Of a stretch of 64,000 bases of DNA, positions 1 to 43,397 are shown piece after piece. Position numbers and translations under genes: made by a program. Each line of letters begins with the position of its first letter. The first letter of the stretch is position 1. This stretch comes from a virus. Taxonomy: Duplodnaviria > Heunggongvirae > Uroviricota > Caudoviricetes. The DNA lies in IMG/VR virus record IMGVR_UViG_3300028454_001165, positions 1 to 64,000 of that record. The stretch is one strand, 5' to 3'. The notes beneath the pieces were generated by a model, which made no database searches, was not told the DNA's origin, and worked only from the letters and a program-made list of their open reading frames with translations.

Positions 1-1506
1 ATGGCTGAGAACATCCGGCAGGGACAGGCTCCCGCCGAAGAAGAGAACGTAAACGATCTGATCCGGGTGCGGCGCGAGAAGCTGAAGGCGCTGCAGGACG
101 CGGGACAGGATCCCTTCACGATCCGCCGGTACGACGTGACCCACCATTCGAACGAGATCCGTGACGGGTTTGAGGAACTGGAGGGTAAGGACGTCGTGAT
201 CGCGGGGCGGCTTATGTCCAAGCGCATCATGGGCAAAGCGTCCTTCGCGCATGTGCAGGATCTGGGCGGCACCATTCAGGTCTACACCTCCCGGGACACC
301 CTCGGCGAGGAATCCTACGCGGAGTTCAAGAAGGACGACGTGGGCGACATCGTGGGCGTCAAAGGCGAAGTCTTCCGCACCAAGACCGGCGAGATTTCCG
401 TCCGGGCCTCCGAGTTTGTCCTCCTCTCGAAGTCCCTCCAGCCTCTGCCGGAGAAGTTCCACGGCCTGACCAACGTGGATCAGCGGTACCGTCAACGGTA
501 TGTGGATCTCATCACCAATCCGGATTCCCGCGACGTGTTCGTGAAGCGTTCGAAGATCATCCGCGCGATCCGGAATTTCCTCGACGGGCAGGGATTCCTC
601 GAGGTCGAGACGCCGATCCTCGTGACCAACGCGGGCGGCGCGGCGGCAAGACCGTTCGAGACCCATCACAACGCGCTGGACGAGGATTTCAAGCTCCGGA
701 TCTCCCTCGAGCTGTATCTTAAGCGGCTGATCGTCGGCGGACTCGAGCGGGTCTATGAGATCGGGCGCGTGTTCCGCAACGAGGGCATCGACACCCGCCA
801 CAACCCGGAATTCACGCTGATGGAGCTCTATCAGGCCTACACCGACTATCATGGCATGATGGATCTGACGGAGAACATGTACCGCACCGTTGCGAAGGAA
901 GTGCTCGGGACCACGACCATCACCTATAACGGCGTGGAGATGGATCTGAGCAAACCGTTCTCCCGGATCACGATGGTGGACGCCGTGAAGCAGTATTCCG
1001 GCGTGGACTGGAACGAGATCCATACATTGGAGGAAGCCCGGGCAGCAGCGAAGGAACACAAGGTGGAATTCGAGGAGAGGCACACGAAGGGCGATATCCT
1101 CAATCTCTTCTTCGAAACCTTCGTGGAAGAGCACCTGGTCCAGCCGACCTTCATCATGGATCATCCGGTGGAGATTTCCCCGCTGACCAAGCGCAAGCCG
1201 GAAAATCCGGACTATGTGGAGCGGTTCGAGTTCTTCATGAACGGCTGGGAAATGGCCAACGCCTATTCCGAGCTGAACGACCCCATCGACCAGAGGGCCC
1301 GTTTTGCCGCGCAAGACGCCATGGCCGCTCAGGGCGACGAAGAGGCCCAGCACACGGACGAGGACTTTCTCAACGCGATGGAGATCGGCATGCCTCCCAC
1401 AGGCGGGATCGGCTACGGCATCGACCGGATGTGCATGCTTCTGACGGACTCTGCCGCCATCCGCGACGTGCTTCTGTTCCCGACGATGAAGACTGTGAAG
1501 GAATAA
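1..1506 (+). CDS. lysS: lysine--tRNA ligase (class II LysRS)
   Basis: 501-aa ORF starting at position 1 with a plausible native N-terminus. N-terminal OB anticodon-binding-like region, class II aaRS catalytic core ([21 protein letters not shown] motifs). Terminator follows. Confidence 0.93.
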
Positions 1507-5170: not shown

Positions 5171-5278
5171 CAGCCCCTCTTCTCTTCTGCCTGATAAAAG
5201 TTTATCATGGGGAAAGCGCGTCTCAAACGGAGGCGGACTGCTTTCCCTTTATTTTTTTGCTCAGAAAGGAGACACAAC

Positions 5279-6025
5279 ATGAGCAAAGCAAAAAATCTGA
5301 TCCGGAAGATCCTTCCGACGGTATTGACTGTCATAGGAGCCGGAGCAACTGTCGCAGCAACTGTGCTCGCGGCAAAAGAGGGGCCAAAATTTGAAAGGGC
5401 TCTTAAAGAAAAGGAGATGACGGCAAAGGAAAAGATTGTCGCGGGAGTGAAGATCTTTGCACCGGCGGCCGGATGCGCTGCGGTTTCAATTGCCTGTACT
5501 GTCGGCGCGCATTGCATGGATCTTCACACGCAGGCCTCTATTACGGGCGCATATATCGCCGTTCAGGAGGCTTATAAGAAGTACCGGGCCAAAAATGAGG
5601 AACTGAACGGTCCGGAAGCAGACCAGAAAATCCTCACAGAGATCATGACGGAAGAAGTCCCGGAAGAGATCCGCGAAAGGATTGGCAACGAACCAATGCT
5701 GAAATTCCATGATTCCGTCAGCGGTCAGGACTTTTACAGTACAATGGCGAATGTGATTCAGGCAGAATACAACGTCAACAAGATGATAACTACACTTGGA
5801 GCGTGCAAGGAGAATGACTGGCTTGAGTTTCTGGATATTGCAAAAGTAGCTGGCGGGGATGATCGCGGATGGTCATCTGATATGCTTTGCGACTTATACA
5901 GCGAATGGTGGCTTGACTTTGCGCATTATCCGTCAGTTGATCTGGATAACGAAGAGACTGTCATCATTGTGCCGGACGTAGATCCGTCAGATGGCTATTT
6001 GAGTAATTACGGCCTCGACTGCTGA
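5279..6025 (+). CDS. membrane protein, paralog family A (249 aa)
   Basis: AAAGGAGA RBS. N-terminal TM segment, Lys/Glu linker, second hydrophobic segment (AGCAAVSIACTVGAH). Architecture shared with the 7130 and 8565 genes. Confidence 0.6.
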   Translation: MSKAKNLIRKILPTVLTVIGAGATVAATVLAAKEGPKFERALKEKEMTAKEKIVAGVKIFAPAAGCAAVSIACTVGAHCMDLHTQASITGAYIAVQEAYKKYRAKNEELNGPEADQKILTEIMTEEVPEEIRERIGNEPMLKFHDSVSGQDFYSTMANVIQAEYNVNKMITTLGACKENDWLEFLDIAKVAGGDDRGWSSDMLCDLYSEWWLDFAHYPSVDLDNEETVIIVPDVDPSDGYLSNYGLDC

Positions 6026-7129: not shown

Positions 7130-7945
7130 ATGAGTAAAACAGAAAGATTTGTTGAAGCAATGGCAAGAGGCCTGAAAAAGAGCTGGCCCAAGATTGCTGT
7201 TATCGCAGGAGGGGCTTTGCTGGCGATCGGCGGGTATAAAGCCGGGCTTGAGGTCCCTCGGTATGAGAAAGAGATCAGGGAAAAGGAGAAGGCATCCGAA
7301 GAGAAACTGAAAAAGACGGAAAAAGCGAAGATTGCCGCAAAGCATTTTGTCACTCCCGTGTGCATGGCAGCAGCAGGCGGAATGCTTCTCGTGGCCTCTA
7401 TCTGCGAGAACGACAGGCGTACAGCGATTGGCAGCACGGCGGTGGCAGCTCTTGAAGCGACATCTAAAACCTTTGCCGATTATAAGGAAGCGACGAAGGA
7501 GGTCGCCGGGGAAGAGACGGAAAAAGAAATCCGGAAGAAAGTCAAGGAAAAGCGTCTGGAGAATACGCCTTCCGTACAGGACCCACCGTTCGATAAGGTC
7601 CCTCCGAGTATGCAGGATATGTACTGGTGCTATGACCTGGCATTTGGGGGCGAGCCTTTTCTGACAACAAAGTACAAGCTGGAAAAAGCTGAAAATGAAA
7701 TCCAGAAACAGGTCCTGACCGGAGAAGAAGTCACGCTCAATGAAGCCTATTATATTCTCGGGATGAATCCGGTGAAAATGGGAGAGTCATACGGTTGGAA
7801 ATATGACCCGGAGCATCCGTCAAGCGGCACTGTGGATCTTGATATTTCTACAACGGAAAAGAACGGTGTGCCCGTGTTCTCGATTCTTCCCAATGCAAAT
7901 CTGATTGGCAAAGGCTTTTATGAAATTTCGAACTACGGTTTCTGA
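7130..7945 (+). CDS. membrane protein, paralog family A (271 aa)
   Basis: RBS GAAAGGAGAA. Same N-terminal TM / Lys-Glu linker / second hydrophobic segment as 5279 and 8565. C-terminal ESYGWKYDP motif. Confidence 0.6.
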   Translation: MSKTERFVEAMARGLKKSWPKIAVIAGGALLAIGGYKAGLEVPRYEKEIREKEKASEEKLKKTEKAKIAAKHFVTPVCMAAAGGMLLVASICENDRRTAIGSTAVAALEATSKTFADYKEATKEVAGEETEKEIRKKVKEKRLENTPSVQDPPFDKVPPSMQDMYWCYDLAFGGEPFLTTKYKLEKAENEIQKQVLTGEEVTLNEAYYILGMNPVKMGESYGWKYDPEHPSSGTVDLDISTTEKNGVPVFSILPNANLIGKGFYEISNYGF

Positions 7946-8564: not shown

Positions 8565-9491
8565 ATGAATCTCAAAAACATCGGAAAAGGCATTGGCGAC
8601 TTCGGGAAGAAGATCGCTTTTTCCGCACGGAAACATTCCCCGGAACTCTTAACCGGAGGCGCGATCGCATTAGGAATCGGAACAGTCATCGCAACGTGGT
8701 TCGCGGCAAGAAAAACGGACAAAGCTCTCGAAGAGCCGAAGAAGATCATCAAAACGGCAAAAGAGATGCCCGTCAGCGAGTCCTATACGGAGGCAGACCG
8801 TAAGCATGACATCTGGCTCGGATATAAAAAAGGCGCCGTGCAGATCATAAAACTGTACGGACCGGTCACGCTTATGGGCGCGTCATCGATTGCCTGCATA
8901 CTCGGTTCTCACAGAATCCTGTCCAATCGCAACGCCGGTCTGATCGCGGCGAACAGTATCCTGTCGAAGGAATTCAGCGATTACCGGGATAAGGTGATCG
9001 AGAAGTATGGACGCGAGGAGGACTACAACCTGCGCTTCGCGGACAAAATGGAGACTGCCGAAGCAACTCTCAAAGAAGAAAACGGCGAAGAGAAAACGGT
9101 CACGGTTGAGAAGGCGAAGGAAGGGTATCAGCTCGACACGTTTTCGCGGTGTTTCGACGATACAAATCCGTGCTGGAAAAGGGATACACAGTACAATGCG
9201 ACGTTCCTCAAACAAATCATGTCGCAGATGACGGATAAGCTTCGGGCGGAACGCGTGCTTTGTCTGAACGAGGTGTATGATGCTCTCGGATTCGACAAAA
9301 CACAAGCTGGCTTTGAGTACGGATGGATCTGCAAGCCCGGTCAGGAGATGGAGGCATACGTGGACTTCGGAATCTATGACATGAACAAAGAAAGTGTCCG
9401 GGAATTCATCTACGGTCACAACAACAGTATCTGGCTGGACTTCAATTGCTCGAAGATCATCTGGGCTGAGACTCCGTTCAGGAAGGTGTGA
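8565..9491 (+). CDS. membrane protein, paralog family A (308 aa)
   Basis: RBS GAAAGGAGC. TM / linker / TM architecture. C-terminal FEYGWICKPG motif. Confidence 0.6.
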   Translation: MNLKNIGKGIGDFGKKIAFSARKHSPELLTGGAIALGIGTVIATWFAARKTDKALEEPKKIIKTAKEMPVSESYTEADRKHDIWLGYKKGAVQIIKLYGPVTLMGASSIACILGSHRILSNRNAGLIAANSILSKEFSDYRDKVIEKYGREEDYNLRFADKMETAEATLKEENGEEKTVTVEKAKEGYQLDTFSRCFDDTNPCWKRDTQYNATFLKQIMSQMTDKLRAERVLCLNEVYDALGFDKTQAGFEYGWICKPGQEMEAYVDFGIYDMNKESVREFIYGHNNSIWLDFNCSKIIWAETPFRKV

Positions 9492-10691: not shown

Positions 10692-11012
10692 ATGAGTGAT
10701 GAAAAAATCGTCAAAGTGCTTGTGCGCATGGACGGAATTCCGATGGCTGCTCGACAGGACAATCGTGATATTCTGAAAATCATCCGGAAGCAGAAAAAGC
10801 AAATCAGAGGGCTGAAAGGCTTTGTCTTCGCACTGATCGTCGGAGGAGCGGTCCTTGCTGCCGAACTTGCAGAAAGAAAACGGAGCGAAAATTACCTGCA
10901 AAGCAAGATCGACAGTCTGAACGAAAAGGTGGACGATCTTCAGAACCGTATGCCGGAGAGCAACGTGGATACCCACGACGAAGCAAACATCGGAGGAGTC
11001 AGTGATGCGTAA
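10692..11012 (+). CDS. hypothetical protein with central TM helix and coiled coil (106 aa)
   Basis: GAAAGGAGAAG RBS. Stop overlaps the start of the replication gene (TAATGG). Confidence 0.5.
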   Translation: MSDEKIVKVLVRMDGIPMAARQDNRDILKIIRKQKKQIRGLKGFVFALIVGGAVLAAELAERKRSENYLQSKIDSLNEKVDDLQNRMPESNVDTHDEANIGGVSDA

Positions 11013-14000
11013 TGGCAGACTTCTTCAAAGTATTCACACGGTCGCCGAAGCGAGGACATGTTGAAATCTACCCGGAGTTTATTATCCGCAGCCCAAGCCA
11101 GGATCTGATGATCAAAGGCGGAGACTTCTATGCGGTCTGGGTCGAAGAACGCGGGCTTTGGTCCACAAGCGAACAGGATCTGATCAATCTTGTAGATCGG
11201 GAGCTTTATCAATATGCGGAAGAGTACGAGAAAAACTCGCCAGATGACATCGTGCATGTTCTGTGCATGAAGTATTCCTCCACCGGAACTACGGATCGAT
11301 GGCATAAGTATTGCCAGAAGCAGATGCGGGACTCCTATCATCCGCTTGACGAAAAGCTGGTCTTTTCCAATACGGAGGTCTCCAAGAGCGATTATGCTTC
11401 AAAGAGACTTCCGTATCCGCTGGAAGCCGGAGAGTGTCCTTCTTGGGATCAGTTCATGTCCGTTTTATATTCTCCCGAGGAGAGGCACAAAATCGAATGG
11501 GCGATCGGAGCCGTCGTGTCAGGCGATTCAAAGGACATTCAGAAGTTTATGGTGTTCTACGGTGATCCGGGGACCGGGAAATCTACCGTGTTAGACATCA
11601 TCATGCTTCTGTTTGCCGGGCACTACTGCACGTTCGACGCGAAGGCCCTCGGCAATCCGAACAGCACGTTTGCGCTCGAACCGTTCAAAGCCAATCCGCT
11701 TGTGGCGATCCAGCAGGACGGAGATCTCAGCCACATCGAGGATAATACCCGGCTGAACTCCATCGCCTCACACGATGAGATGACGGTGAACGAGAAGCAC
11801 AAGTCTTTATATTCCAACCGGTTCAACTGCTTCATGTTCATGGGCACGAACAAGCCCGTAAAGATCACGGACGCAAAATCCGGTATAATCCGGCGTCTGA
11901 TCGACGTATCGCCGACAGGAAACAAACTGCCGAGACGGGAATACGACAAACTCCGTTCTCAGGTCAAGTTTGAACTCGGAGCGATCGCAAAGCGGTGTCT
12001 GGACATCTATCTCGACGATCCGCATTTTTATGACAATTACATCCCGCTCAAGATGATGGGAGCCTCCAATGACTTCTACAATTATGTTTTGGATTCCTAT
12101 TCGGTATTCGAGCGGGAAGACGGGGTTTCGCAGAAAGCGGCGTGGGAGATGTACCGGACATACTGCGAAGAGGCGCGGGTTCCGTATCCGCTGTCGCTTC
12201 GGGTCTTCAAAGAAGAGCTGAAAAGCTACTTCAAGGAGTTCAAGGAGCGGATCAGCACGGAAGACGGCGGCCGCGTCCGAAACTGGTACGGCGGTTTTCG
12301 AAAAGAGAAATTTGTTCGGGAGGACTTTTCCGAAAAATCTCATGAGAAGACGGATCCTTCCTGCTGGTTCGTTCCGGCTCCGCGAACATCGCTCTTTGAT
12401 ATTTTGGGCGCGGACTATCCTGCCCAATACGCCAGCGAGGAAGGGATACCCAGACGGCGCTGGGTCAATGTTACGACAAAACTGAAAGATCTGGACACAT
12501 CACAGCTTCACTACGTCAAGGTTCCGATCAACCACATTGTGATCGATTTCGATATTCCGGATGAGCACGGCAGCAAAAGCCTCGAAAAGAATCTGGAAGC
12601 GGTATCGCGGTGGCCTCCTACCTACGGAGAGCTGTCGAAAAGCGGGCAGGGCATTCATCTTCATTATATTTATAAGGGAGATCCGAAACAGCTCAGCCAC
12701 GTTTACGACGACCGGATCGAGATCAAGGTGTTTGACGGAAATATGACGCTGAGACGGAAGCTTACGAAGTGCAACGATCTTCAGATAGCAGAGATCAGCT
12801 CAGGTTTACCGCTGAAAGGAGAAGACAAAATGGTAAACACCGAGACTGTGAAGAACGAGAAGGCGATCCGAACTCTGATCAAGAGGAATCTATGCAAGGA
12901 GTATCATCCCGGAACGAAGCCGAGCGTGGATTTCATCAAGAAGATTCTGGACGACGCCTATTCCAGCGGCGTGCGCTATGACGTGAGCGACATGTTCAAT
13001 CCCGTGCTGGCCTTTGCCACGAACAGCACGCATCACGCCGAATACTGCACGAAGCTGGTTTCCGAGATGCACTTCCGCTCTGAGGAGGAACCGACGCCGG
13101 GATTCCTCGAAAAAGTCGAAAATATGGGCAAAAATGATATTTTGATATTTTTCGACGTGGAGGTTTTCAAGAATCTTTTCGTGATCTGTTGGAAAGCTGC
13201 CGGGGCGGATCAACCGATCATGAAGATGATCAATCCGACGCCGAAGGAAGTGGAGGCTCTGACAAGGTGGAAGCTGATCGGATTCAACTGCCGTCAGTAC
13301 GACAACCATATTCTCTATGCGAGAATCATGGGGTACACGAACGAGCAGCTCTACAATCTGTCACAGTCCATTATCGGCTCGGAGAAAGGAAATCGGAACC
13401 GGGGCATGTTCGGCAACGCCTACAACTTATCCTATACGGATATTCTGGACTTCTCGTCTGAGAAAAAATCCCTGAAGAAATTTGAGATCGATCTCGGGAT
13501 TCACCATCAGGAGCTCGGTTTCGAATGGGATCAGCCTGTTTCGGAGGAGTTGTGGGAAAAGGTCGCCGAGTATTGCGCGAACGACGTGATCGCAACGGAA
13601 GCGGTCTGGAACGCACGGCAGGCGGATTTTATGGCGCGGCAGATTCAGGTGGAGCTTGTCAAGGCTTTGCACGGGATTACGGGCGTTTCGGTCAATGACA
13701 CGACAAACTCCCTGTCGGAGAAGATCATATTCGGCACGGAGAAAAATCCTCAGCGGCAGTTCAATTACCGCGATCTCTCAAAACCGGTTCCATGGACGGA
13801 ATATACGGAATACCGGAAGCGATTCGGAGACAGGTATACGTTCCATGTCTTCGACGACCACGGCCTTCCGACGTATGAAATCTACACCGGCGAGGGATGC
13901 GTCGTCCTGCCTGACGGATATTCCATTCTCCCATTCTTTCCCGGATATACGTTTGAGTTCGGTAAATCTGTGTATATGGGAGAGGAGATAGGAGAAGGAG

Positions 14001-15208
14001 GGCGTGTCTACGCGGAACCTGGCATTCATGAGAATGTCTGGGATGGGGACATCGCTTCCCAGCACCCGCACAGCGTGATCGCAGAATGCCTGTTCGGGCC
14101 GAAGTACACGGGAATCTTCGAGGAGATCGTGGAGGCGCGCGTCGCCATCAAGCACAAGGACTTTGAGAAAGCCGGGTCCATGCTGAACGGCGTGCTGAAG
14201 CCGTGGCTCACGGAAGAACATGCTGCCGGTCTTGCGCAGGCTCTGAAAATCGTCATCAATTCCATTTACGGGCTGACCTCAGCGGGATTTACAAACCGCT
14301 TCCGGGATGAGCGCAACGTAGATAACATTGTGGCGAAACGCGGAGCTCTGTTTATGACGCTGCTCAAATCCGAAGTGCAGAAGCGCGGATTCACGGTAGC
14401 GCACATCAAGACGGATTCCATCAAGATCGAGAACGCGACGGAGGAGATCCGCAACTTTGTTGTGAAATTCGGACGCGAATACGGATACGATTTCGAAACG
14501 GAGGCAGAATTCGATAAGTTCTGTCTTGTGAACGACGCCGTATACGTGGCGCGGTACAAGGAAGCCCTGAAAGACAAAAAGACCGGAAATGATATTTGGT
14601 GGACGGCCACCGGGACGCAGTTTCAGGTGCCCTATGTCTTCAAAACTTTGTTCTCCGGGGAAGAGCCGGTCTTTGAGGACTTCTGCGAAACAAAATCCGT
14701 TGCGAAGGGGGCAATCGTCATCGATATGAATGAGACCCTTCCGCAGCTCAGCGCGGCAGAGGAAAAGGAACTGATCGAGCTGCAAAAAGCGTACTCCGTA
14801 TCCGATCCTCCGCTTGAAACGGACATGGCTAAGCTCGTAAAGAAATTCAAACTATCCCCGGAAGAGATCGCATCGCGCTATGAAGACCTGAAAAAGCGGG
14901 AGGCAGAAGCGCACAATTATATTTTCGTCGGCAGGGTCGGACAGTTTTGTCCTATTGTGTCCGGCGGAGGAGGCGGGGTACTCTATCGGAATGCGGACGG
15001 CAAGTATTATGCTGTCAGCGGGACGAAAGGCTACCGCTGGCTGGAATCGGAGATGGTAAAGACTCTGGACAAAGCAGATCTCATTGACCGGAGCTTTTAT
15101 GATGCTCTTGCGAAAGATGCTATTCATACCATCAACGAAATCGGTCAAAAATGCGGCTGGGGCGGTTACAGGAAGCTTGTCGGGCATAATGCGGATGATG
15201 CTGACTAG
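11012..15208 (+). CDS. tripartite replication protein: SF3 (D5/P4-like) helicase + AEP primase + family-B DNA polymerase with 3'-5' exonuclease
   Basis: SF3 helicase Walker A FYGDPGTGKST and motif C NCFMFMGTNKP. AEP primase hhhDhD (IVIDFDIPDE) and sGxGxHhhY (SGQGIHLHYIY). DEDDy exonuclease motifs (ILIFFDVEVF; YCANDVIA). Family-B polymerase motif A (DGDIASQHPHS), motif B (KIVINSIYGLT) and motif C (HIKTDSIKIE). Confidence 0.85.
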   Translation: MADFFKVFTRSPKRGHVEIYPEFIIRSPSQDLMIKGGDFYAVWVEERGLWSTSEQDLINLVDRELYQYAEEYEKNSPDDIVHVLCMKYSSTGTTDRWHKYCQKQMRDSYHPLDEKLVFSNTEVSKSDYASKRLPYPLEAGECPSWDQFMSVLYSPEERHKIEWAIGAVVSGDSKDIQKFMVFYGDPGTGKSTVLDIIMLLFAGHYCTFDAKALGNPNSTFALEPFKANPLVAIQQDGDLSHIEDNTRLNSIASHDEMTVNEKHKSLYSNRFNCFMFMGTNKPVKITDAKSGIIRRLIDVSPTGNKLPRREYDKLRSQVKFELGAIAKRCLDIYLDDPHFYDNYIPLKMMGASNDFYNYVLDSYSVFEREDGVSQKAAWEMYRTYCEEARVPYPLSLRVFKEELKSYFKEFKERISTEDGGRVRNWYGGFRKEKFVREDFSEKSHEKTDPSCWFVPAPRTSLFDILGADYPAQYASEEGIPRRRWVNVTTKLKDLDTSQLHYVKVPINHIVIDFDIPDEHGSKSLEKNLEAVSRWPPTYGELSKSGQGIHLHYIYKGDPKQLSHVYDDRIEIKVFDGNMTLRRKLTKCNDLQIAEISSGLPLKGEDKMVNTETVKNEKAIRTLIKRNLCKEYHPGTKPSVDFIKKILDDAYSSGVRYDVSDMFNPVLAFATNSTHHAEYCTKLVSEMHFRSEEEPTPGFLEKVENMGKNDILIFFDVEVFKNLFVICWKAAGADQPIMKMINPTPKEVEALTRWKLIGFNCRQYDNHILYARIMGYTNEQLYNLSQSIIGSEKGNRNRGMFGNAYNLSYTDILDFSSEKKSLKKFEIDLGIHHQELGFEWDQPVSEELWEKVAEYCANDVIATEAVWNARQADFMARQIQVELVKALHGITGVSVNDTTNSLSEKIIFGTEKNPQRQFNYRDLSKPVPWTEYTEYRKRFGDRYTFHVFDDHGLPTYEIYTGEGCVVLPDGYSILPFFPGYTFEFGKSVYMGEEIGEGGRVYAEPGIHENVWDGDIASQHPHSVIAECLFGPKYTGIFEEIVEARVAIKHKDFEKAGSMLNGVLKPWLTEEHAAGLAQALKIVINSIYGLTSAGFTNRFRDERNVDNIVAKRGALFMTLLKSEVQKRGFTVAHIKTDSIKIENATEEIRNFVVKFGREYGYDFETEAEFDKFCLVNDAVYVARYKEALKDKKTGNDIWWTATGTQFQVPYVFKTLFSGEEPVFEDFCETKSVAKGAIVIDMNETLPQLSAAEEKELIELQKAYSVSDPPLETDMAKLVKKFKLSPEEIASRYEDLKKREAEAHNYIFVGRVGQFCPIVSGGGGGVLYRNADGKYYAVSGTKGYRWLESEMVKTLDKADLIDRSFYDALAKDAIHTINEIGQKCGWGGYRKLVGHNADDAD

Positions 15209-33447: not shown

Positions 33448-34098
33448 ATGTTCTGCAAGAAATCTGGGTATATCTCAGAATGGCCCGAAAACCTGATCGA
33501 GGAAATCCTTGAAAAGACCGTAGAGGAGCCTCTGACCGGCTGGCAGATCGACGGGCTGGAATGGATCCTCGGAAATCTGAACAAGAGAACGGGCGACATG
33601 ATCCGATACAAATTCAAGGACGGACTCACGCTGGAGGAGATCTCCGGCATCTTCGGCGTCGGGAAGGAAAGAGTCCGGCAGATCATCGCAAGAGGGATCC
33701 GGCTGATGCGGCATCCGTCGCGGACTGTTTATCTTTTGAAGGACTACAAGACCGTGACCGCCGACTACGAAGCGGAGCTTGCCCGGCTGACGCAGGAGAT
33801 CGGCGAACGTGAGGTGGAACTCGACCGGCTTGTGAAAAAGATCGCGGAGCTGAGCGAGAAGGCGGAAACGCTTGAGCCTGCGGCTTCGAGAGCGCAAAAC
33901 GCGGCTTTGCGTCTTCCAATCATCGATATGGATCTGAGCGCGCGGGCATACAACTCCCTTATTCGATGCGGAATGGATACGATCGAAGATGTTGTAAAGC
34001 GGTGGGGTGAAGATGAGCTGCACGGAATACGGAACTGCGGGGCGGTATCACGCGAAGAAATCCGGAGAAAGCTCATATCGTTTGGCGTACTGAATTGA
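33448..34098 (+). CDS. sigma-70 region-4-like HTH fused to an RNA polymerase alpha-subunit C-terminal-domain-like module (217 aa)
   Basis: LTLEEISGIFGVGKERVRQIIARGIRLMRH matches the sigma70 region 4.2 consensus. After a coiled-coil linker, IIDMDLSARAYNSLIRCGMDTIEDVVKRWGEDELHGIRNCGAVSREEIRRKL aligns to E. coli RpoA alpha-CTD ([48 protein letters not shown]). Confidence 0.6.
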   Translation: MFCKKSGYISEWPENLIEEILEKTVEEPLTGWQIDGLEWILGNLNKRTGDMIRYKFKDGLTLEEISGIFGVGKERVRQIIARGIRLMRHPSRTVYLLKDYKTVTADYEAELARLTQEIGEREVELDRLVKKIAELSEKAETLEPAASRAQNAALRLPIIDMDLSARAYNSLIRCGMDTIEDVVKRWGEDELHGIRNCGAVSREEIRRKLISFGVLN

Positions 34099-35712: not shown

Positions 35713-36009
35713 ATGTATATCGTGAATGATATTTGTTATGCCGGAGAGCTTGTCGAGGACATCCGGGTGACGGAGGTCAAACCTCTGCGGGGACGGATGA
35801 TGCTCGTGACGTTCTCCACGGGGGAGAAGCGTTTGTTCGACACGACGCTTCTGAAGGGCTCTGCGTTCGAGCCGCTGAAGGATGAAAAGATCTTCATGGC
35901 TCCGGTCCTGTTCCACGGGGTCATCACATGGAACAACGGGGAAATCGACATCGCGCCGGAGACGGTTTATGTCGAGAGCTACCCATATGAGGAGGCCGCC
36001 GTCGTTTGA
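35713..36009 (+). CDS. DUF2442-family protein (98 aa)
   Basis: Typical DUF2442 size and pattern (IRVTEVKPL....LVTFSTGEKRLFD). Canonical two-gene pairing with DUF4160. Confidence 0.5.
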   Translation: MYIVNDICYAGELVEDIRVTEVKPLRGRMMLVTFSTGEKRLFDTTLLKGSAFEPLKDEKIFMAPVLFHGVITWNNGEIDIAPETVYVESYPYEEAAVV

Positions 36010-36225
36010 TATTAACGGCAAAGGGTGACGGGAAAAGAGAAACGGGGTCGTGCGATTTGCATGGCCTCTTTCTTTTTGCCGCGCAGATTGATATTTATAG
36101 ACTTGTTTAGGAGATCGGGGGGGGGACTTGAGGTTGATTTGGCGAACTTTTGCGGGCGGTTTTCTATCTTAAGATAGTTCTCGAGGGATGCGAGATTGAT
36201 ATTTTGTACTTTTTAGGAGACGATT

Positions 36226-36480
36226 TTACTGGCCAATTTTATAGTTGTAAAAGTGGGCTTTGCCCACCCAAAATGCAGAAAATAATTAGTTTAACAAACT
36301 AACTGTCCGGAAAAAGTGGGCAACTGGCCACTTTTTTTTCAAAGTTGGCCAGCTGAAAACCGTTGTCTTTATTGGGTTTGAGGCTTCTCTGGCCAATTGG
36401 CCAACTTTTTTTTAATATTTCCGCGAAACGAAAAAATTCGTTTTTATATAATATAGAGAAAAAACTGGGCAAGTTGGCCA
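36226..36480 (+). repeat. iteron cluster: six TGGCCA copies (one as the 14-bp palindrome TGGCCAATTGGCCA) plus GTGGGCtttGCCCAC and AAGTGG...CCACTT palindromes and an AT-rich core
   Basis: TGGCCA at 36230, 36325, 36346, 36390, 36398, 36475. AT-rich 36404-36460 containing AACGAAaaaaTTCGTT. No ORF with RBS. Confidence 0.6.
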
Positions 36481-36594
36481 GCGTGGATTTTGAGGCTGTT
36501 TTCACAAGAAAAAGCGCGGCGGAGAGTCCGGTCGCGTTGATTGATATTTTCGGAGATTGAGGGGGGGGGGATGAACGCTTTCGTCGGACTGCGA

Positions 36595-36619
36595 CGCGAA
36601 AAAAACATGGGTCTTAATG
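36595..36619 (+). promoter_or_regulatory. CGCG-N16-TAATGG motif (copy identical to 37224-37248)
   Basis: gcgaCGCGaaaaaaacatgggtctTAATGGagaacatccaaaattactga, 46 nt identical to the downstream cassette. Confidence 0.45.
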
Positions 36620-36663
36620 GAGAACATCCAAAATTACTGATTTTTCAAAAGGAGTTTAGAACT

Positions 36664-36912
36664 ATGGCAAAGATCAATGCGAAGGAAATCGGAATGGCGT
36701 GCCTGACCGGTGCGAAGAAGATCTGGAAGCCTTTAACGGGCGTTATGATCGCTGCGGGAGCGGTGATCGGAACGTACCTGCTGGGGAAAAAAGAACTCGA
36801 CGCGGAGGAGGCGGCGGAAAACGAGAACCTGCTCGCGGACGGAGCTGAAGAAGAAACGACTGACGAAGAAAGCAACGAGGAAGAATCCGAAGAGGAGGAC
36901 GACGCTGAATAA
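36664..36912 (+). CDS. small TM protein with poly-acidic tail (82 aa)
   Basis: AAAAGGAGTTTAGAACT RBS. TM GVMIAAGAVIGTYLL. Tail ...EEESEEEDDAE. The last codons and terminator are duplicated at 37435-37475. Confidence 0.5.
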   Translation: MAKINAKEIGMACLTGAKKIWKPLTGVMIAAGAVIGTYLLGKKELDAEEAAENENLLADGAEEETTDEESNEEESEEEDDAE

Positions 36913-36937
36913 GCGTCCCCTCTTTCTTTTTTTTTTT
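36895..36937 (+). terminator. terminator hairpin GACGC-tgaataa-GCGTC + T-run (duplicated at 37443-37479)
   Basis: Stop codon TAA sits in the loop. T10 run follows. Confidence 0.5.
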
Positions 36938-37175: not shown

Positions 37176-37235
37176 TGATATTTACATGATTATATCATAG
37201 ACACGGAATAAATGCAAGGACAGCGCGAAAAAAAC

Positions 37236-37460
37236 ATGGGTCTTAATGGAGAACATCCAAAATTACTGAATGAAGGAGAAATAGAGATAAAAAGCTTGAA
37301 AAGTATCGTGCTTGGGAGTATCGGAGGCTTGGTGGGCGGGTTTACCGTTCTGCTATGGCTCTGGAGCAGACCGGACACGCTGACGGATGAGCTGAATGAA
37401 ATTCGCTCTGACATCAAAGCTTTGGAGGAATCCAAAAAGACGGAGGACGACGCTGAATAA
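37236..37460 (+). CDS. small TM protein with acidic C-terminus (about 75 aa; start ambiguous)
   Basis: Shares 5' flank and 3' end (EDDAE* plus terminator) with the 36664 cassette. TM helix IVLGSIGGLVGGFTVLLWLW. No clean RBS-ATG; the start may be the ATG inside the promoter-like motif or a downstream TTG/GTG. Confidence 0.3.
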   Translation: MGLNGEHPKLLNEGEIEIKSLKSIVLGSIGGLVGGFTVLLWLWSRPDTLTDELNEIRSDIKALEESKKTEDDAE

Positions 37461-37645
37461 GCGTCCCCTCTTTCTTTTTGCGGCGGGTGGGATTGATATT
37501 TCCGGGAATCGGGGGGGGGACGCGCAGATCGCATGGACTGTAATGAGAGAAGAACGAATATGCGCGTTCTGTTTCTCTTGCGTTTGATCCGCAAAAAAAA
37601 AGAGCCCGCGTTTCGGCACAGGCCCTTTTGTCCGCTTGCGCGGTA

Positions 37646-37750
37646 TCACTTCCGGTTTTCCACGGAAGCTCTGGCATCCGCCAGCTTTTCCGCAGCGATC
37701 TGCAGAGCAGCGATGATGCCTTCGAGATTTACTCTCCGGCGAGCTTTCAT
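37646..37750 (-). CDS. 34-aa - strand peptide with strong RBS
   Basis: AAGGAGGG 7 nt upstream of ATG. Sequence MKARRRVNLEGIIAALQIAAEKLADARASVENRK. Confidence 0.3.
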   Translation of the reverse strand: MKARRRVNLEGIIAALQIAAEKLADARASVENRK

Positions 37751-38049
37751 TTTTCAGCCCTCCTTTACGGTAGAATCTCTTCTCCTTTTCTACGAGTATT
37801 ATACCAAATTTCGGCGGGTTTGTCAAGCGGATTGCGGATCGGACGCAAAAAAGAACCTATGATCGGACACAGGTTCTTTCCGGGTTTCCTTCGGATGCGG
37901 GTGGGCGAACAATCAACACTGATTGATATTCGTACCGCTGGTTTCTCCTTTCAGTTTCGGCTGGCAACGGTCTGCGCGCAAGATCACCGATCATCCCAAA
38001 CTGAACGTCCGGCTCCGCATCCAATGGAAGCCCTACGGCTCTTAACCGC

Positions 38050-38136
38050 TTACCTTCGGCTGATGTAATTCAGCACGGCAACTACAGTCTGAATGAGACT
38101 GAGCACCAACATGATGATACCAATCAATTCAGTCAT
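38050..38136 (-). CDS. 28-aa hydrophobic peptide, type I toxin-like
   Basis: Sequence MTELIGIIMLVLSLIQTVVAVLNYISRR. Canonical promoter TTGCAA(38190-38195)-N17-TATAAT(38167-38172) on the - strand. Paralog of the 38660 peptide. Confidence 0.45.
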   Translation of the reverse strand: MTELIGIIMLVLSLIQTVVAVLNYISRR

Positions 38137-38659
38137 GTACACCGCTTTCCGTGTGCGCGCGAGAGCATTATAGCACATTCTCGGCGTCTTTGCAACCGGC
38201 AGGTTGAACAAAGATCGTTCGGGATCTGTGCGAAAAATAAGGAGAGGCGCATAGCTAACATACCCTCTTTATTTTTGCCGAGGATCCGGGGAAGGTGGTT
38301 TTCGAAATGCCCCCCCCCTGTTTTATTGATATTTTCAGACGGTCGGACGCGGCGGAAACATTTTCTGTTATGAAGAGAGGAGACAGAACGGGGTTTTGGT
38401 TCCCGTTTGATTTTGTCTTTCTTTTCGTCATTGATATTTTCGATGACGAAGAAAAAGGAGATACGCGCCAGACGCTGCCAAACAGCTTTTCCGTATAAAT
38501 GAATCACTTCATGTTCGGAACGGTCGGCGGGGTCTGCCGTACTGACGAAGAGCGGTTTCTTTCGCCGCGATTTGCTGCGCGGGATGAATGAGGAGGAAGT
38601 AGTTCATCCCCTACTTGAAATTGCAATGCGTCTTTACGGCGGATCCCCCTTTTTCAGCC

Positions 38660-38767
38660 TTACCGCTTACGGATTTGCATCACGCAAGCGACAACGGTGG
38701 CTAATGCCGACACGACTTCGCATACGGTCTGAACAAAGTCAAACACAAGCTGGATGTCAAACGTCAT
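38660..38767 (-). CDS. 35-aa hydrophobic peptide, type I toxin-like
   Basis: Sequence MTFDIQLVFDFVQTVCEVVSALATVVACVMQIRKR. GAAAGAAAGGGG RBS. Extended -10 TGcTAAAAT upstream on the - strand. Same MT...QTV...I(R/S)(K/R)R pattern as the 38050 peptide. Confidence 0.45.
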   Translation of the reverse strand: MTFDIQLVFDFVQTVCEVVSALATVVACVMQIRKR

Positions 38768-38860
38768 GGCGCGCCCCTTTCTTTCTACATGCGGGCGCAC
38801 GGATATTTTAGCACAGGTCGTCATCACTCGCGTGCACAATTTTCAGAAAGGAGAAACAAA

Positions 38861-39848: not shown

Positions 39849-42668
39849 ATGGATACGAAAAACGACGCGATCTACATCGATGAGGAAACCGGCGAGGTCT
39901 TGGATGACATGGATATTCTCGAGCACTACGGGATGCCCCGGCGGTCCGGGAGGTACCCGTGGGGTTCCGGGGACAATCCTTACCAGCGGACGGGGGATTT
40001 CATTTCCCGCGTGAACAAGATGAAGGCCGACGGCATGTCGGAGGGGGAGATCGCCCGCGAGCTTGAGATTGTGAACTACCGCGGCGAACCGTCCCCATCC
40101 CGGCTCAGAACGCAGCTCTCCGTCGCCAAGAATTACCGCCGCTCGCTTCTTGTAGAGCAGGCGAAGGACATGAAGGCGAAGGGTCTCGGAGCTACGGAGA
40201 TCGGCGAGAAGATGGGGCTGAACGAGTCTACGGTCCGCTCCCTTCTCAATACGAAGGCCGAAGCCCGGATGCTCGCGGCGTCCAACACGGCGAAATACCT
40301 CAAAGAGGAGATCGACAAGAACGGCATGATCGACGTTGGTTCCAGCGTGGAGCGAAAGCTCGGCGTGACGCGGACGACGCTCGACAACGCGCTGATGATC
40401 CTCGAAATGGAGGGATATCCGACTTACGGAGGACGGGTCCCTCAGGTGACGAACAAGGGGCAGATGACGACGCTCAAGGTGGTCTGCCCGCCGGGCGCTG
40501 AGAAAAAAGATATTTACGATTATGCGAAGATCCACCAGCTCGGAGACAGGATCTCGTCCGACGGAGGCGAGACCTTCGATCCGGTCTGGGTCTATCCGAA
40601 GTCGCTGGATTCGAAGCGGGTGCAGATCCGTTACGCGGAAGAAGGCGGCAAGGACAAGGACGGTGTGGTTGAGATCCGGCCGGGTGTGGAAGACGTTTCC
40701 CTCGGCGGCTCCTCTTACGCGCAGGTCAGGGTTCTGGTGGACGGGACGCATTACATCAAGGGCATGGCGGTTTACGGGGATCCGGCCGACTTCCCGGAGG
40801 GGGTCGACATGATCTTCAACACGAACAAGCACGTCGGGACGCCGATGCTGTCGGATGATCCGAACGCGAAGTGCGTGCTCAAGCCCATCGATAAGGCGAA
40901 TCCGACGAACCCCTTCGGGTCGCTGATCAAGGACGGCATCGTCGATCCTGACGACCCTTCGAAGAAGGAGGGCGGACAGCGGTACTACTACGACGAGAAC
41001 GGCGAGAAGCAGCTCTCCGTCATCAACAAGCGGGCCGACGCCGGGGATTGGAACGAATGGAGCCACGATCTCCCCTCGCAGTTCCTTTCGAAGCAGAACA
41101 ACAAGCTCGTGAAGCAGCAGCTCGATCTTGCGAAGATCGACAAGCAGAGCGAATACGAGGAGATCTGCGCATTGACGAATCCGACGGTGAAGAAGCATCT
41201 CCTTCTGAATTTCGCGAACGACTGTGATTCGGCGGCGGTGCATCTCAAGGCGGCCGCCCTTCCGAGGCAGCGGTATCAGGTGATCCTTCCCCTGACGACG
41301 CTCGGGGACGACGAGGTCTATGCTCCGAACTACAAGCCTGGGGAGAAGGTCGCGCTGATCCGGTATCCGCACGGGGGGACGTTCGAGATCCCGATCCTGA
41401 AGGTGAACAATAAGAATGCGGAGGGGAGGCGGGTGATCGGGCCCAATCCGCCGGATGCGGTCGGCATCAACGCGAAGGTCGCGGAGCGGCTCTCCGGGGC
41501 GGATTTCGACGGGGACACGGTCATGGTGATCCCGCTCTCCGGCAAGGCGAATATCACCTCTACGCCGACGCTTCCGGGGCTCGAAGGCTTCGATCCGAAG
41601 GAGCAGTACGGCGGGAAACCGGCAGGGACCTTCAAGCAGATGACGAAGCCCGGCACGCAGATGGAGATGGGGAAGGTTTCAAATCTCATCACCGACATGA
41701 CGATCGGGGGGGCCGGTCCGGAAGAGCTGGCAAAGGCGGTTCGCCACTCCATGGTGGTCATCGACGCATACAAGCACAAGCTGGATTACAAGCAGTCCGA
41801 AATCGACAACGATATCCCCGCCCTCAAACGCAGATGGCAGGGGCATACGACGGAGGACGGGCGGTATTCCACGGGGGCCGCCACGATCATTTCGCAGGCG
41901 AAGGGGCAGGCGAGCGTTCCGAAATACCGGGGGGTCCAGAAGATCGATCCCGAGACGGGCAAGCTCTACTGGGACAGCCGGAAGACGCCCGAGACCTATG
42001 TGGACAAGAACGGTAAGACGCAGACGCGAATGGTCCGCACCACGAAAATGGCGGCCACGGACGACGCGATGAAGCTGGTTTCGGAAGGCAGGACGCAGGT
42101 CGAGCTGCTGTACGCGGATTACGCGAACACGATGAAGTCTCTGGCGAACGACGCGCGAAAAGAATACGTTTCCGCAGGAAGGATCGAGCGCAGTTCCGAA
42201 GCCGCGCAGAAATATGCGGCCGAAGTGGCAAATCTTGAAGCGCAGCTGAACGTCGCAAAGCTCAACGAGCCGCGCGAACGTCAGGCGCAGCTGAACGCCA
42301 ACGCGAACATCAAGCTCTGGCTGGAGAAGAATCCCGACGCGACGAACGCCGAGATCAAGAAGCAGTCTCAGCGGGAACTCTCGAACGAGCGCGCAAAGCT
42401 CGGCGCGAAGAGAAGTCCGGTGAAGATCAGCCCCGAACAATGGGAGGCGATTCAGGCCGGAGCGGTTTCGGAAAACGTGCTGACGAACATCCTCAAGTAC
42501 ACGGACATTGATGTCGTCCGCGGCTACGCGACGCCTCGCGCTTCCAAAGAGCTGAGCGCGGTGAAGCAGGCGAGGATCCACGCGCTGCAGAACTCCGGCT
42601 ACACGAATCAGGACATCGCAGACGCGCTCGGCGTTTCGGTTTCGACTGTGCTGAACTATCTTGACTGA
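39849..42668 (+). CDS. large multi-HTH protein (940 aa)
   Basis: AAAGAAAGGCAG RBS. Three HTH-like segments (GMSEGEIARELEI; GLGATEIGEKMGLNESTVRSLLN; C-terminal GYTNQDIADALGVSVSTVLNYLD). N-terminal HYGMPRRSGRYPWGSGDNPYQ resembles the N-termini of the 45556 and 50539 products. Confidence 0.6.
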   Translation: MDTKNDAIYIDEETGEVLDDMDILEHYGMPRRSGRYPWGSGDNPYQRTGDFISRVNKMKADGMSEGEIARELEIVNYRGEPSPSRLRTQLSVAKNYRRSLLVEQAKDMKAKGLGATEIGEKMGLNESTVRSLLNTKAEARMLAASNTAKYLKEEIDKNGMIDVGSSVERKLGVTRTTLDNALMILEMEGYPTYGGRVPQVTNKGQMTTLKVVCPPGAEKKDIYDYAKIHQLGDRISSDGGETFDPVWVYPKSLDSKRVQIRYAEEGGKDKDGVVEIRPGVEDVSLGGSSYAQVRVLVDGTHYIKGMAVYGDPADFPEGVDMIFNTNKHVGTPMLSDDPNAKCVLKPIDKANPTNPFGSLIKDGIVDPDDPSKKEGGQRYYYDENGEKQLSVINKRADAGDWNEWSHDLPSQFLSKQNNKLVKQQLDLAKIDKQSEYEEICALTNPTVKKHLLLNFANDCDSAAVHLKAAALPRQRYQVILPLTTLGDDEVYAPNYKPGEKVALIRYPHGGTFEIPILKVNNKNAEGRRVIGPNPPDAVGINAKVAERLSGADFDGDTVMVIPLSGKANITSTPTLPGLEGFDPKEQYGGKPAGTFKQMTKPGTQMEMGKVSNLITDMTIGGAGPEELAKAVRHSMVVIDAYKHKLDYKQSEIDNDIPALKRRWQGHTTEDGRYSTGAATIISQAKGQASVPKYRGVQKIDPETGKLYWDSRKTPETYVDKNGKTQTRMVRTTKMAATDDAMKLVSEGRTQVELLYADYANTMKSLANDARKEYVSAGRIERSSEAAQKYAAEVANLEAQLNVAKLNEPRERQAQLNANANIKLWLEKNPDATNAEIKKQSQRELSNERAKLGAKRSPVKISPEQWEAIQAGAVSENVLTNILKYTDIDVVRGYATPRASKELSAVKQARIHALQNSGYTNQDIADALGVSVSTVLNYLD

Positions 42669-43213: not shown

Positions 43214-43397
43214 AATCGAGTCGTCGCCCTGCTGGAACTCGCAAGAGTTTCGTGAATTTGAAACCCCTCCTCTGAAATCTGCTGTCAGACACCCGGGGGA
43301 GGGGTCGAAAAATCTGCACCCCCTCTGAAATCGCGTTGGCCTTTGAAAAATCTCCGGGGGAGTTATTTGAGAAAAGTCGTTCGTCTCTGATATTCAG

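Follow-up and report, generated by a model that had tools for sequence, protein, structure and literature searches.

Among the described replication systems, the origins of the staphylococcal pathogenicity islands (SaPIs) come closest to the locus reported here. They contain 6–12 iterons and an AT-rich centre, with at least two oppositely pointing iterons on each side, and their reader is a winged helix belonging to an SF3 helicase that loads itself (PMC9371898; for the work on the origins, Ubeda 2007 and 2012, refs 28 and 29 therein). A further point of reference is the replicase of the phage family treated below, which was characterised biochemically in 2025: GP55 of Lactococcus phage 1706 has been described as the sole replication protein besides an SSB, and no origin was named for it (PMC12205980). 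Here, we analysed 64,000 nucleotides of a Caudoviricetes virus (IMG/VR record IMGVR_UViG_3300028454_001165, positions 1 to 64,000; hereafter the window), which encodes a homologous replicase as well as a gene-free, repeat-rich region, termed the hub. Our preferred reading, to which we assign a probability of about 0.5, is that the conserved core of the hub is a SaPI-like replication origin for this GP55-type replicase, as suggested by sequence comparison, a structure model and the analogy with the SaPI origins.

The first-pass annotation of the window had described the region as a candidate origin or regulator-binding locus on account of TGGCCA hexamers, palindromes, an AT-rich stretch, copies of TTGATATTT and two G-tracts (G9 and G10). 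Every one of these motifs is present where it had been placed, and the iterons and the unwinding-type AT-rich stretch stand, whereas several of the specifics do not, as described below. The TGGCCA hexamer occurs 16 times in 64 kb. Six of the 16 copies, starting at 36230, 36325, 36346, 36390, 36398 and 36475, are packed into 251 bp (36230–36480), a density that was reached in 0 of 20,000 trials placing 16 sites at random. In a scan of the whole 64 kb, the hub ranks first for local repeat density and is the single statistically extreme iteron cluster, and its core is one of two segments that share the rank of AT-richest 57 bp. The palindromic elements include TGGCCAATTGGCCA (36390–36403), GTGGGCtttGCCCAC (36253–36267) and AAGTGG..CCACTT (36314–36333), and AACGAAaaaaTTCGTT is located within the AT-rich stretch (36427–36442). 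The region is also gene-free, as annotated. Two open reading frames (ORFs) cross the core, 36363–36560 on the plus strand and 36299–36505 on the minus strand, and neither is open in the closest relative (L195; related loci carry L numbers throughout), so hidden small ORFs were dropped as an explanation. A tRNA search of the hub was negative, and no known phage was found to resemble the region at the DNA level.

Judged from the alignment with L195, the iteron AAAGT(T)GG(G/C)CA, about 11 bp long, asymmetric and A-tracted, is the functional unit of the hub. The TGGCCA hexamer, which had been taken as the iteron, is only a part of this unit, and its palindromy is incidental because the same positions in L195 read TTAGCCA or TGGCTA. 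At least nine iteron or half-iteron copies are distributed across 36228–36481, and the relatives hold 5–13. The conserved core of the region extends over about 36228–36500 (Table 1). In its centre, an AT-rich core is flanked by an inverted iteron pair on the left and a direct pair on the right, and is a candidate unwinding element, with a −10 box as a further possibility. The sequence TTTTGAGGCT, which follows the right pair, is found 3' of the right iteron in L021 and L148 as well.

The comparison with relatives indicates that the hub is a real, conserved and putatively protein-binding iteron array. Well over 100 genomes of related phages have the hub in the corresponding position. In most related loci with enough upstream sequence, the densest repeat cluster lies 1.3–3.5 kb upstream of the gene for the phage RNA polymerase (RNAP), and the architecture as a whole 0.1–3.5 kb upstream of it. 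The same layout is found in four cultured phages, namely Oengus, where it occupies an unannotated gap, 1706, where it stands directly before the RNAP gene, Gordonia phage Secretariat and Microbacterium phage Camille. The order of the parts is constant: a terminator is followed by a direct iteron array and a short AAACC..GGGTTT element, then by one or two inverted iterons with a T-run, an AT-rich core of about 50–65 bp, and an A-run with one or two direct iterons. The commonest iteron, which we call type A, is (A)AAAGTGGGCA (logo of 244 instances). Forty-four unique type-A cores align at fixed spacing, and at least 120 viral contigs contain the signature of this core, GCCCACTTNCCCACTTTT. The iteron of the window is a variant of type A, and L021 contains 13 TGGCCA-type copies. 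Other lineages carry TATGCGCTTATGCAAG, TATGCTAGCGTGCAACC, GATATCCA or TACGTACAA, 1706 carries AAAACTTCGGGA, and Secretariat carries TTGACGAATCTGA. The first-pass annotation had proposed looking for the iteron block in syntenic relatives, where its conservation proved to be strong.

Two comparisons concern individual relatives. The orthologous hub of L195, whose RNAP is 76% identical, aligns with the hub of the window at 74%, and the flanking genes are unrelated. Its iterons are altered in register, from TTGGCCA to TTAGCCA or TGGCTA. A hub that is kept among unrelated neighbours, with iterons changed in register, is what would be expected of a cis element co-evolving with its binding protein. 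The second comparison is with the actinophage Camille, which has type-A iterons in the same geometry and a GC dip to 33–37% against a background of 55%. The AAAGTGGGCA iteron is thus common to phages of Clostridia and of Microbacterium, across bacterial phyla, which argues for a conserved phage-encoded protein as the reader and makes a host factor unlikely.

The replicase of the window is a 1,398-residue helicase-primase-polymerase (11012–15208, plus strand) with matches to phrog_4210, DUF5906 and, weakly, Pox_D5. The hub shares with the SaPI origins the number of iterons and the AT-rich centre with at least two opposed iterons per side, and the phage likewise has an SF3 helicase with a predicted winged helix behind it. 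We infer from these likenesses both that the replicase binds the hub iterons and that replication starts at the hub. In such an origin, the winged helix following the SF3 helicase domain would bind the opposed asymmetric A-tracted iterons, two helicase rings would self-load head to head, the AT-rich core would melt, and the same polypeptide would prime and then extend. The additional upstream iterons of the left array could raise the local concentration of the replicase. The flanking TTGATATTT motifs, G-runs and CGCGAAA..CTTAATGG element would at most direct transcription through the origin.

The winged helix of the replicase is the best candidate for the iteron reader. Residues 175–409 match PriRep5 of SaPI5 (PDB 7OLA, phmmer E = 2e-6), and residues 371–435 show a weak match to the RFX winged helix. 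The AlphaFold (AF2) model contains a helix-strand-helix-helix-strand-strand winged helix directly after the ATPase (residues ~354–429, pLDDT about 75–83). Foldseek matches to the model comprise the NrS-1 helicase, PriRep1 on double-stranded DNA, PriRep5 and D5/E5 at a probability of 1.0, and ORC/Cdc6 structures are among the fold matches. Among the best 80 replicase loci of IMG/VR, no contig carries a non-type-A hub. The wing motif RVRS[YW][YF] was seen in each of the 10 contigs whose hub is known to be of type A and, with Camille, in 11 genomes. It is altered in the window (RVRNWY), which has the variant iteron, and in Secretariat, 1706 and L019, which have iterons of other kinds or none of type A. 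This covariation of wing motif and iteron is suggestive and covers few independent lineages.

Other candidate readers were considered and rejected. The 940-residue protein that the first-pass annotation had put forward as a helix-turn-helix (HTH) binder (39849–42668) is, by its sequence, a YonO/QDE-1-like two-barrel RNAP, with a match to phrog_4291 at 1,175 bits, an ADFDGD motif and HTH domains at both ends. The recognition helices of its N- and C-terminal domains are essentially invariant over at least 12 iteron types, which speaks against these domains as readers. The window also encodes a 216-residue protein combining sigma-70 region 4 with the C-terminal domain of the RNA polymerase alpha subunit (33448–34098), which might bind a −35-like TTGATA motif. 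With only three similar protein clusters in 5.8 billion sequences and no homologue in 1706, it is too rare to be the reader. The iterons were likewise rejected as priming sites of GP55, since the 1706 iterons lack CCAAC, the motif measured in that phage. Around the core of the window, CCAAC faces outward (36401 on the plus strand; GTTGG at 36344 and 36473).

Several observations weigh against an origin read by the replicase. The hub is 21 kb away from the replicase gene, whereas the SaPI origin directly follows rep. An iteron hub within 3 kb of the replicase was found at 0 of the 80 replicase loci, and the position of the hub follows the RNAP operon rather than the replicase. The replicase model as a whole is of moderate confidence (mean pLDDT 68), and the Foldseek TM-scores reach just 0.35–0.48. 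Helix 3 differs between Camille and the gut type-A phages despite their identical iterons, so that it is the wing only that carries the covariation. The GC skew, named in the first-pass annotation as a check, gave no signal: there is no shift, and the cumulative skew climbs monotonically without a switch. The remaining contrary observations concern promoter-like blocks in the core and regulator genes next to some hubs, and these bear directly on a transcriptional interpretation of the locus.

Under that interpretation, which is the chief competitor of the origin and has to be taken seriously although we rate it less likely, the AT-rich core is a host-type, tightly controlled promoter of the endonuclease-exonuclease-RNAP operon and the iterons are operators for a phage regulator responsible for the timing or autoregulation of this operon, so that the hub is a switch rather than an origin. 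The hub is always upstream of the RNAP block, directly before the endonuclease gene in L120, L133, L148 and L185, and is usually preceded by a terminator. Since only about 12–20 nt separate the last iteron from the start of the following gene in L011 and L115, these two hubs must contain a promoter. The 44 type-A cores of Firmicutes phages keep T(G/A)(T/C)GA, a 17-nt spacer and TATA(T/A)A at promoter-like spacing and at a fixed distance from the iterons. These hexamers (TTGTGA or TTATGA, 17 nt, TATATA or TATAGT) are, however, weak, with at most 8 of 12 matches, and the blocks are absent in Camille, which retains the iteron geometry and the AT dip. The window has CCGCGA in the −35 position, at 20–21 nt from TATAAT (36447–36452); a promoter scan returned no plus-strand promoter in the core, and L195 is similar. 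Genes downstream of the hub have a promoter-like element of their own in the window, in L195 and at L120-type loci. Non-type-A hubs are followed by an HTH_3 (XRE) gene (E about 1e-11) and often preceded by a ribbon-helix-helix (RHH)-like gene. In L011, L023 and L026, these XRE/RHH genes are 35–51% identical as against 77–89% for the RNAP, and adjacent regulator genes diverging along with the hub are what a transcriptional switch would look like. Yet no HTH or RHH gene was found beside the hub of the window, nor at most type-A loci, the type-A iteron is constant although the neighbouring genes all differ between phages, and up to 13 iterons (L021) are many for a set of operators. As an observation on the gene neighbourhood, small 'KRGRP...' RHH-like genes terminate at the left boundary of non-type-A hubs (L129, L161, L163, L175, L182, L193), and at the right boundary start two-domain proteins with a conserved N-terminal domain of about 60 residues and an XRE HTH; at type-A loci, that N-terminal domain occurs alone, as a 58-residue protein. 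An origin whose firing is coupled to an embedded promoter would join the two functions, for which the respective lines of evidence are not mutually exclusive. In iteron plasmids, inverted iterons overlap the rep promoter beside the direct-repeat iterons of the origin, and in the lactococcal phage c2, an early promoter forms part of the origin. A direct array and an inverted pair around a promoter-like core also mirror the basic replicons of iteron plasmids (reviewed in PMC4980987). We regard the combination as improbable here, as no evidence specifically demands both functions and the promoter-like blocks are not universal.

Two further interpretations appear very unlikely. According to one, the palindromes and T-runs (36310–36339 and 36389–36413) are tandem intrinsic terminators or small non-coding RNA genes, ending transcripts that begin at TTGATATTT. 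A terminator scan flags 36390–36403 with its T8, and AAAAAGTGG..CCACTTTTTTTT can pair as a hairpin in the centroid structure. Against this, the predicted fold of the hub is no better than that of shuffled sequences (z-score −0.87), and Rfam returned nothing at the gathering threshold (best E-value 0.28). The T-runs correspond to the A-tracts of iterons in inverted orientation; L195 retains the iteron and the T-run although its left palindrome is unpaired (TGGCTAACTGTCCA) and the hairpin lost, and the iterons of many relatives are direct repeats unable to form hairpins. According to the other, which we disfavour just as strongly, the hub is a centromere-like partition site or a terminase (pac/cos) recognition site. 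The R1 parC and omega-type sites consist of iteron arrays flanking a promoter core, and the hub resembles them in this respect. As for a ParB-type site, which the first-pass annotation had also suggested, no plasmid relatives emerged: the family RNAP had no match in a plasmid collection, and no partition NTPase (ParA, ParM, TubZ) was found among the ORFs scanned. The suggested terminase site is contradicted by the position of the genome end. At least nine IMG/VR contigs, including L005, L006, L009, L011 and L023, stop at ...G-run-N14-CACCCCCTnnTGCAT, right after the small gene 3' of the RNAP gene, and the 94-kb L195 contig ends with ...CACCCCCTCTGAAAT followed by an Illumina adapter (AGATCGGAAGAGC; L195 19700–19814). 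The window reads straight through ...GCACCCCCTCTGAAAT at 43319–43334. The contig stops and the adapter junction place the physical right end of the genome at 43334 (end region 43290–43334), about 7 kb from the hub, which excludes a packaging role of the hub. The window therefore spans a cos-type junction, from a circular or concatemeric assembly, and the terminase gene lies beyond it at 47690.

Table 1. Coordinates of the hub, its parts and its neighbours in the window (L195, closest relative).
Feature	Position	Strand	Remark
Hub region	36010–36663		flanked by two plus-strand genes
DUF2442 gene	35713–36009	+	left neighbour of the hub region
Terminator-like hairpin with CTCTTTCTTTTT tail	36044–36078 (stem 36044–36068)	+	tail aligns with L195
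Phage-wide GATTGATATTT motif, copy 1	36085–36096	+	followed by G9 at 36117–36125
GATTGATATTT motif, copy 2	36193–36204	+	
Left iteron array	36228–36353	both	in register with L195
Left-array iteron AAAATTGGCCAGT	36228–36240	−	
Left-array iteron AAAAGTGGGC with GCCCAC half	36249–36258	+	
Left-array iteron AAAAAGTGGGCA	36311–36322	+	
Left-array iteron AAAAAAAAGTGGCCAG	36324–36339	−	
Left-array iteron AAAGTTGGCCAG	36341–36352	+	
Conserved element GAAAACC..N..GGGTTTGAGGC	36355–36384	+	precedes the inverted iterons; counterpart AAACCCAGTGTTTATGCGGGTTTGCGGGC in type-A relatives
Inner left iteron pair, inverted, CTGGCCAATTGGCCAAC with T8	36389–36413	−	includes the 14-bp palindrome
AT-rich core, about 45 bp	36414–36458		between the two iteron pairs; holds TATATAAT (36445–36452)
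Inner right iteron pair, direct, AAAAAACTGGGCA and AAGTTGGCCAG	36459–36481	+	
TTTTGAGGCT	36488–36497	+	repeat of 36377–36385
GATTGATATTT motif, copy 3	36538–36549	+	followed by G10 at 36561–36570
Family-wide promoter-like or leader element CGCGAAAAAAACATGGGTCTTAATGGAGAAC	36595–36625	+	51 nt 5' of the ATG at 36664; duplicated at 37224
Gene for 82-residue protein with membrane part and acidic tail	36664–36912	+	right neighbour of the hub region

Outside the conserved core are the TTGATATTT motifs, the G-runs and the CGCGAAA..CTTAATGG element. All three are unexceptional members of families that recur across the genome and resemble transcription signals, and the first two can no longer be counted among the features of the hub, as they had been in the first-pass annotation. 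Including the three copies in the region (36088, 36196 and 36541), TTGATATTT occurs 30 times in the window against 0.55 expected, 29 of them on the plus strand; all plus-strand copies fall within 7.8–39.8 kb, the early region (sites span 7839–39825). Seven copies supply the TGA stop of the preceding gene, several come after a hairpin and CTCTTTCTTTTT terminator, and several are too near the next ribosome-binding site to serve as a −35 box. The motif could be a promoter for the phage RNAP or a 'stoperator'-like site. It is common to the window and L195, and L011 and L023 carry ATGATATTT. The terminator at the left of the hub, which ends the upstream DUF4160/DUF2442 unit, is one copy of this recurring cassette of terminator and motif. 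Tracts of at least eight G residues occur at six sites of the window (34116, 36117, 36561 and 37511 on the plus strand; 38310 and 47618 on the minus strand). They are G9–G13, their orientation follows local transcription, and three sit 9–20 nt past a TTGATATTT motif. A role as R-loop or primer pads of the hub was rejected, the tracts being missing from the orthologous hub of L195; at the position of the third motif copy, L195 has GGATATTTT and lacks the G-run. In the first 29 loci, no G8+ run was found upstream of the RNAP gene, the only G-runs there being near the genome end, and in relatives one G-run lies about 35 nt from the right end.

A further element, CGCGAAAAAAACATGnnnCTTAATGGAGAAC, has seven copies in the window (2967, 4174, 22355, 23030, 30872, 36613 and 37242), mostly 37–61 nt ahead of start codons, and is also found in L120, L133, L148, L185 and L030; CGCGAAAAAAACATGGGTCTTAATGGAGAAC at the right flank of the hub is one of the seven. 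In the relatives, it precedes the endonuclease-exonuclease-RNAP operon, sometimes with a hairpin and T-run after it, and it is a candidate promoter for the phage RNAP or a leader. Downstream of the hub, two perfect duplications (36595–36640 = 37224–37269 and 36894–36931 = 37442–37479) join the gene following the hub to a paralogous gene for 82 residues (37212–37460), together with the upstream element and the terminator. Three mini-units on the minus strand (37598–37826, 38050–38211 and 38660–38839) interrupt the otherwise plus-strand genome. One of them has a perfect TTGACA-17-TGnTATAAT promoter (37826–37798), a strong terminator (37629–37598) and an ORF of 34 residues with an AGGAGG ribosome-binding site (37646–37750). 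The other two contain short hydrophobic ORFs resembling type I toxins.

The phage shares its gene order with Lactococcus phage 1706, namely replicase, SSAP, helicase, endonuclease, exonuclease, RNAP, terminase, portal and capsid. It belongs to the family defined in a preprint (bioRxiv 10.1101/842583), which includes Faecalibacterium phage Oengus and about 200 actinophages. The RNAP homologue of 1706 (EU081845.1 orf75) was labelled 'structural protein' by its depositors. The label suggests that the polymerase is packaged in the virion, like that of N4 or of crAss-like phages. At the left end of the window (1–1506), we observed a class II aminoacyl-tRNA synthetase of the Lys/Asn/Asp type (E = 1e-97) encoded on the strand of the phage genes; it belongs either to the phage or to a host flank, and the genomes of relatives reach 94 kb. 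Three neighbouring DUF6353 paralogues are located at 5207–6025, 7130–7945 and 8565–9491.

Our literature search found no origin described for phage 1706 or for related phages; the hub element is absent from PMC12205980 and 10.1101/842583, and we found no report of it elsewhere in the literature. Tentatively, and with the odds slightly against it, we extend the origin reading to the whole supercluster with GP55-type 'four-in-one' helicase-primase-PolB proteins, in which the hub would be read by the winged helix of the replicase, probably through the wing. This supercluster would cover the 1706-like and Oengus-like phages, the gut Clostridia phages and large clusters of actinophages. On the same tentative footing, AAAGTGGGCA may have been kept from Clostridia to Microbacterium phages, and the other lineages may have switched iteron and reader together. 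If true, the family would possess a self-loading, self-priming and self-extending one-protein initiation system. With a conserved single-copy, iteron-flanked AT-rich site and a predicted winged helix at hand, it becomes directly addressable by what means a replisome consisting of one polypeptide locates double-stranded DNA and opens it, and 1706, Oengus and many actinophages are cultured members for such work. If the hub is instead a switch before the RNAP operon, it would be the control point of the transcription programme of the family. Under either reading, the hub is an annotation landmark for hundreds of gut-phage contigs.

Beyond the SaPI elements, several known systems resemble the hub in part. 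At archaeal oriC, inverted ORB elements flank a DNA unwinding element, as the boxes of the hub flank its AT-rich element, and the reader Orc1/Cdc6 has a winged helix on an AAA+ module. The likeness is in mechanism only, since Orc1/Cdc6 belongs to another protein family and, unlike the replicase of the window, loads a separate helicase. Iteron plasmids of the pSC101, P1 and pPS10 type, as well as R1 parC and omega of pSM19035, combine a direct array with inverted repeats around a promoter-like core, as the hub does. In these iteron-plasmid and RHH systems, as in the hub family, iteron specificity diversifies between lineages, and a small DNA-binding gene directly follows, as in the non-type-A relatives. 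In contrast to these systems, neither a Rep_3-type initiator nor a DnaA-box set nor, among the ORFs scanned, a partition NTPase was found, conservation does not extend to the downstream gene, and the most frequent iteron type lacks a DNA-binding gene next to it. The alpha protein of the satellite phage P4 is an SF3 primase-helicase whose C-terminal winged-helix origin-binding domain reads repeated octamers, and the P4 origin can lie far from the alpha gene. P4 has two iteron regions (ori and crr), whereas the 64 kb of the window hold one cluster. The SaPI iterons, at 5–6 bp, are shorter than the A-tracted hub iterons of about 11 bp, and the replicase of the window differs from SaPI Rep/PriRep in carrying a PolB domain as well. 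Nevertheless, in both systems short iterons flank an AT-rich centre, at least two per side and opposed, and an SF3 helicase fused to a primase is encoded together with a winged helix that follows it.

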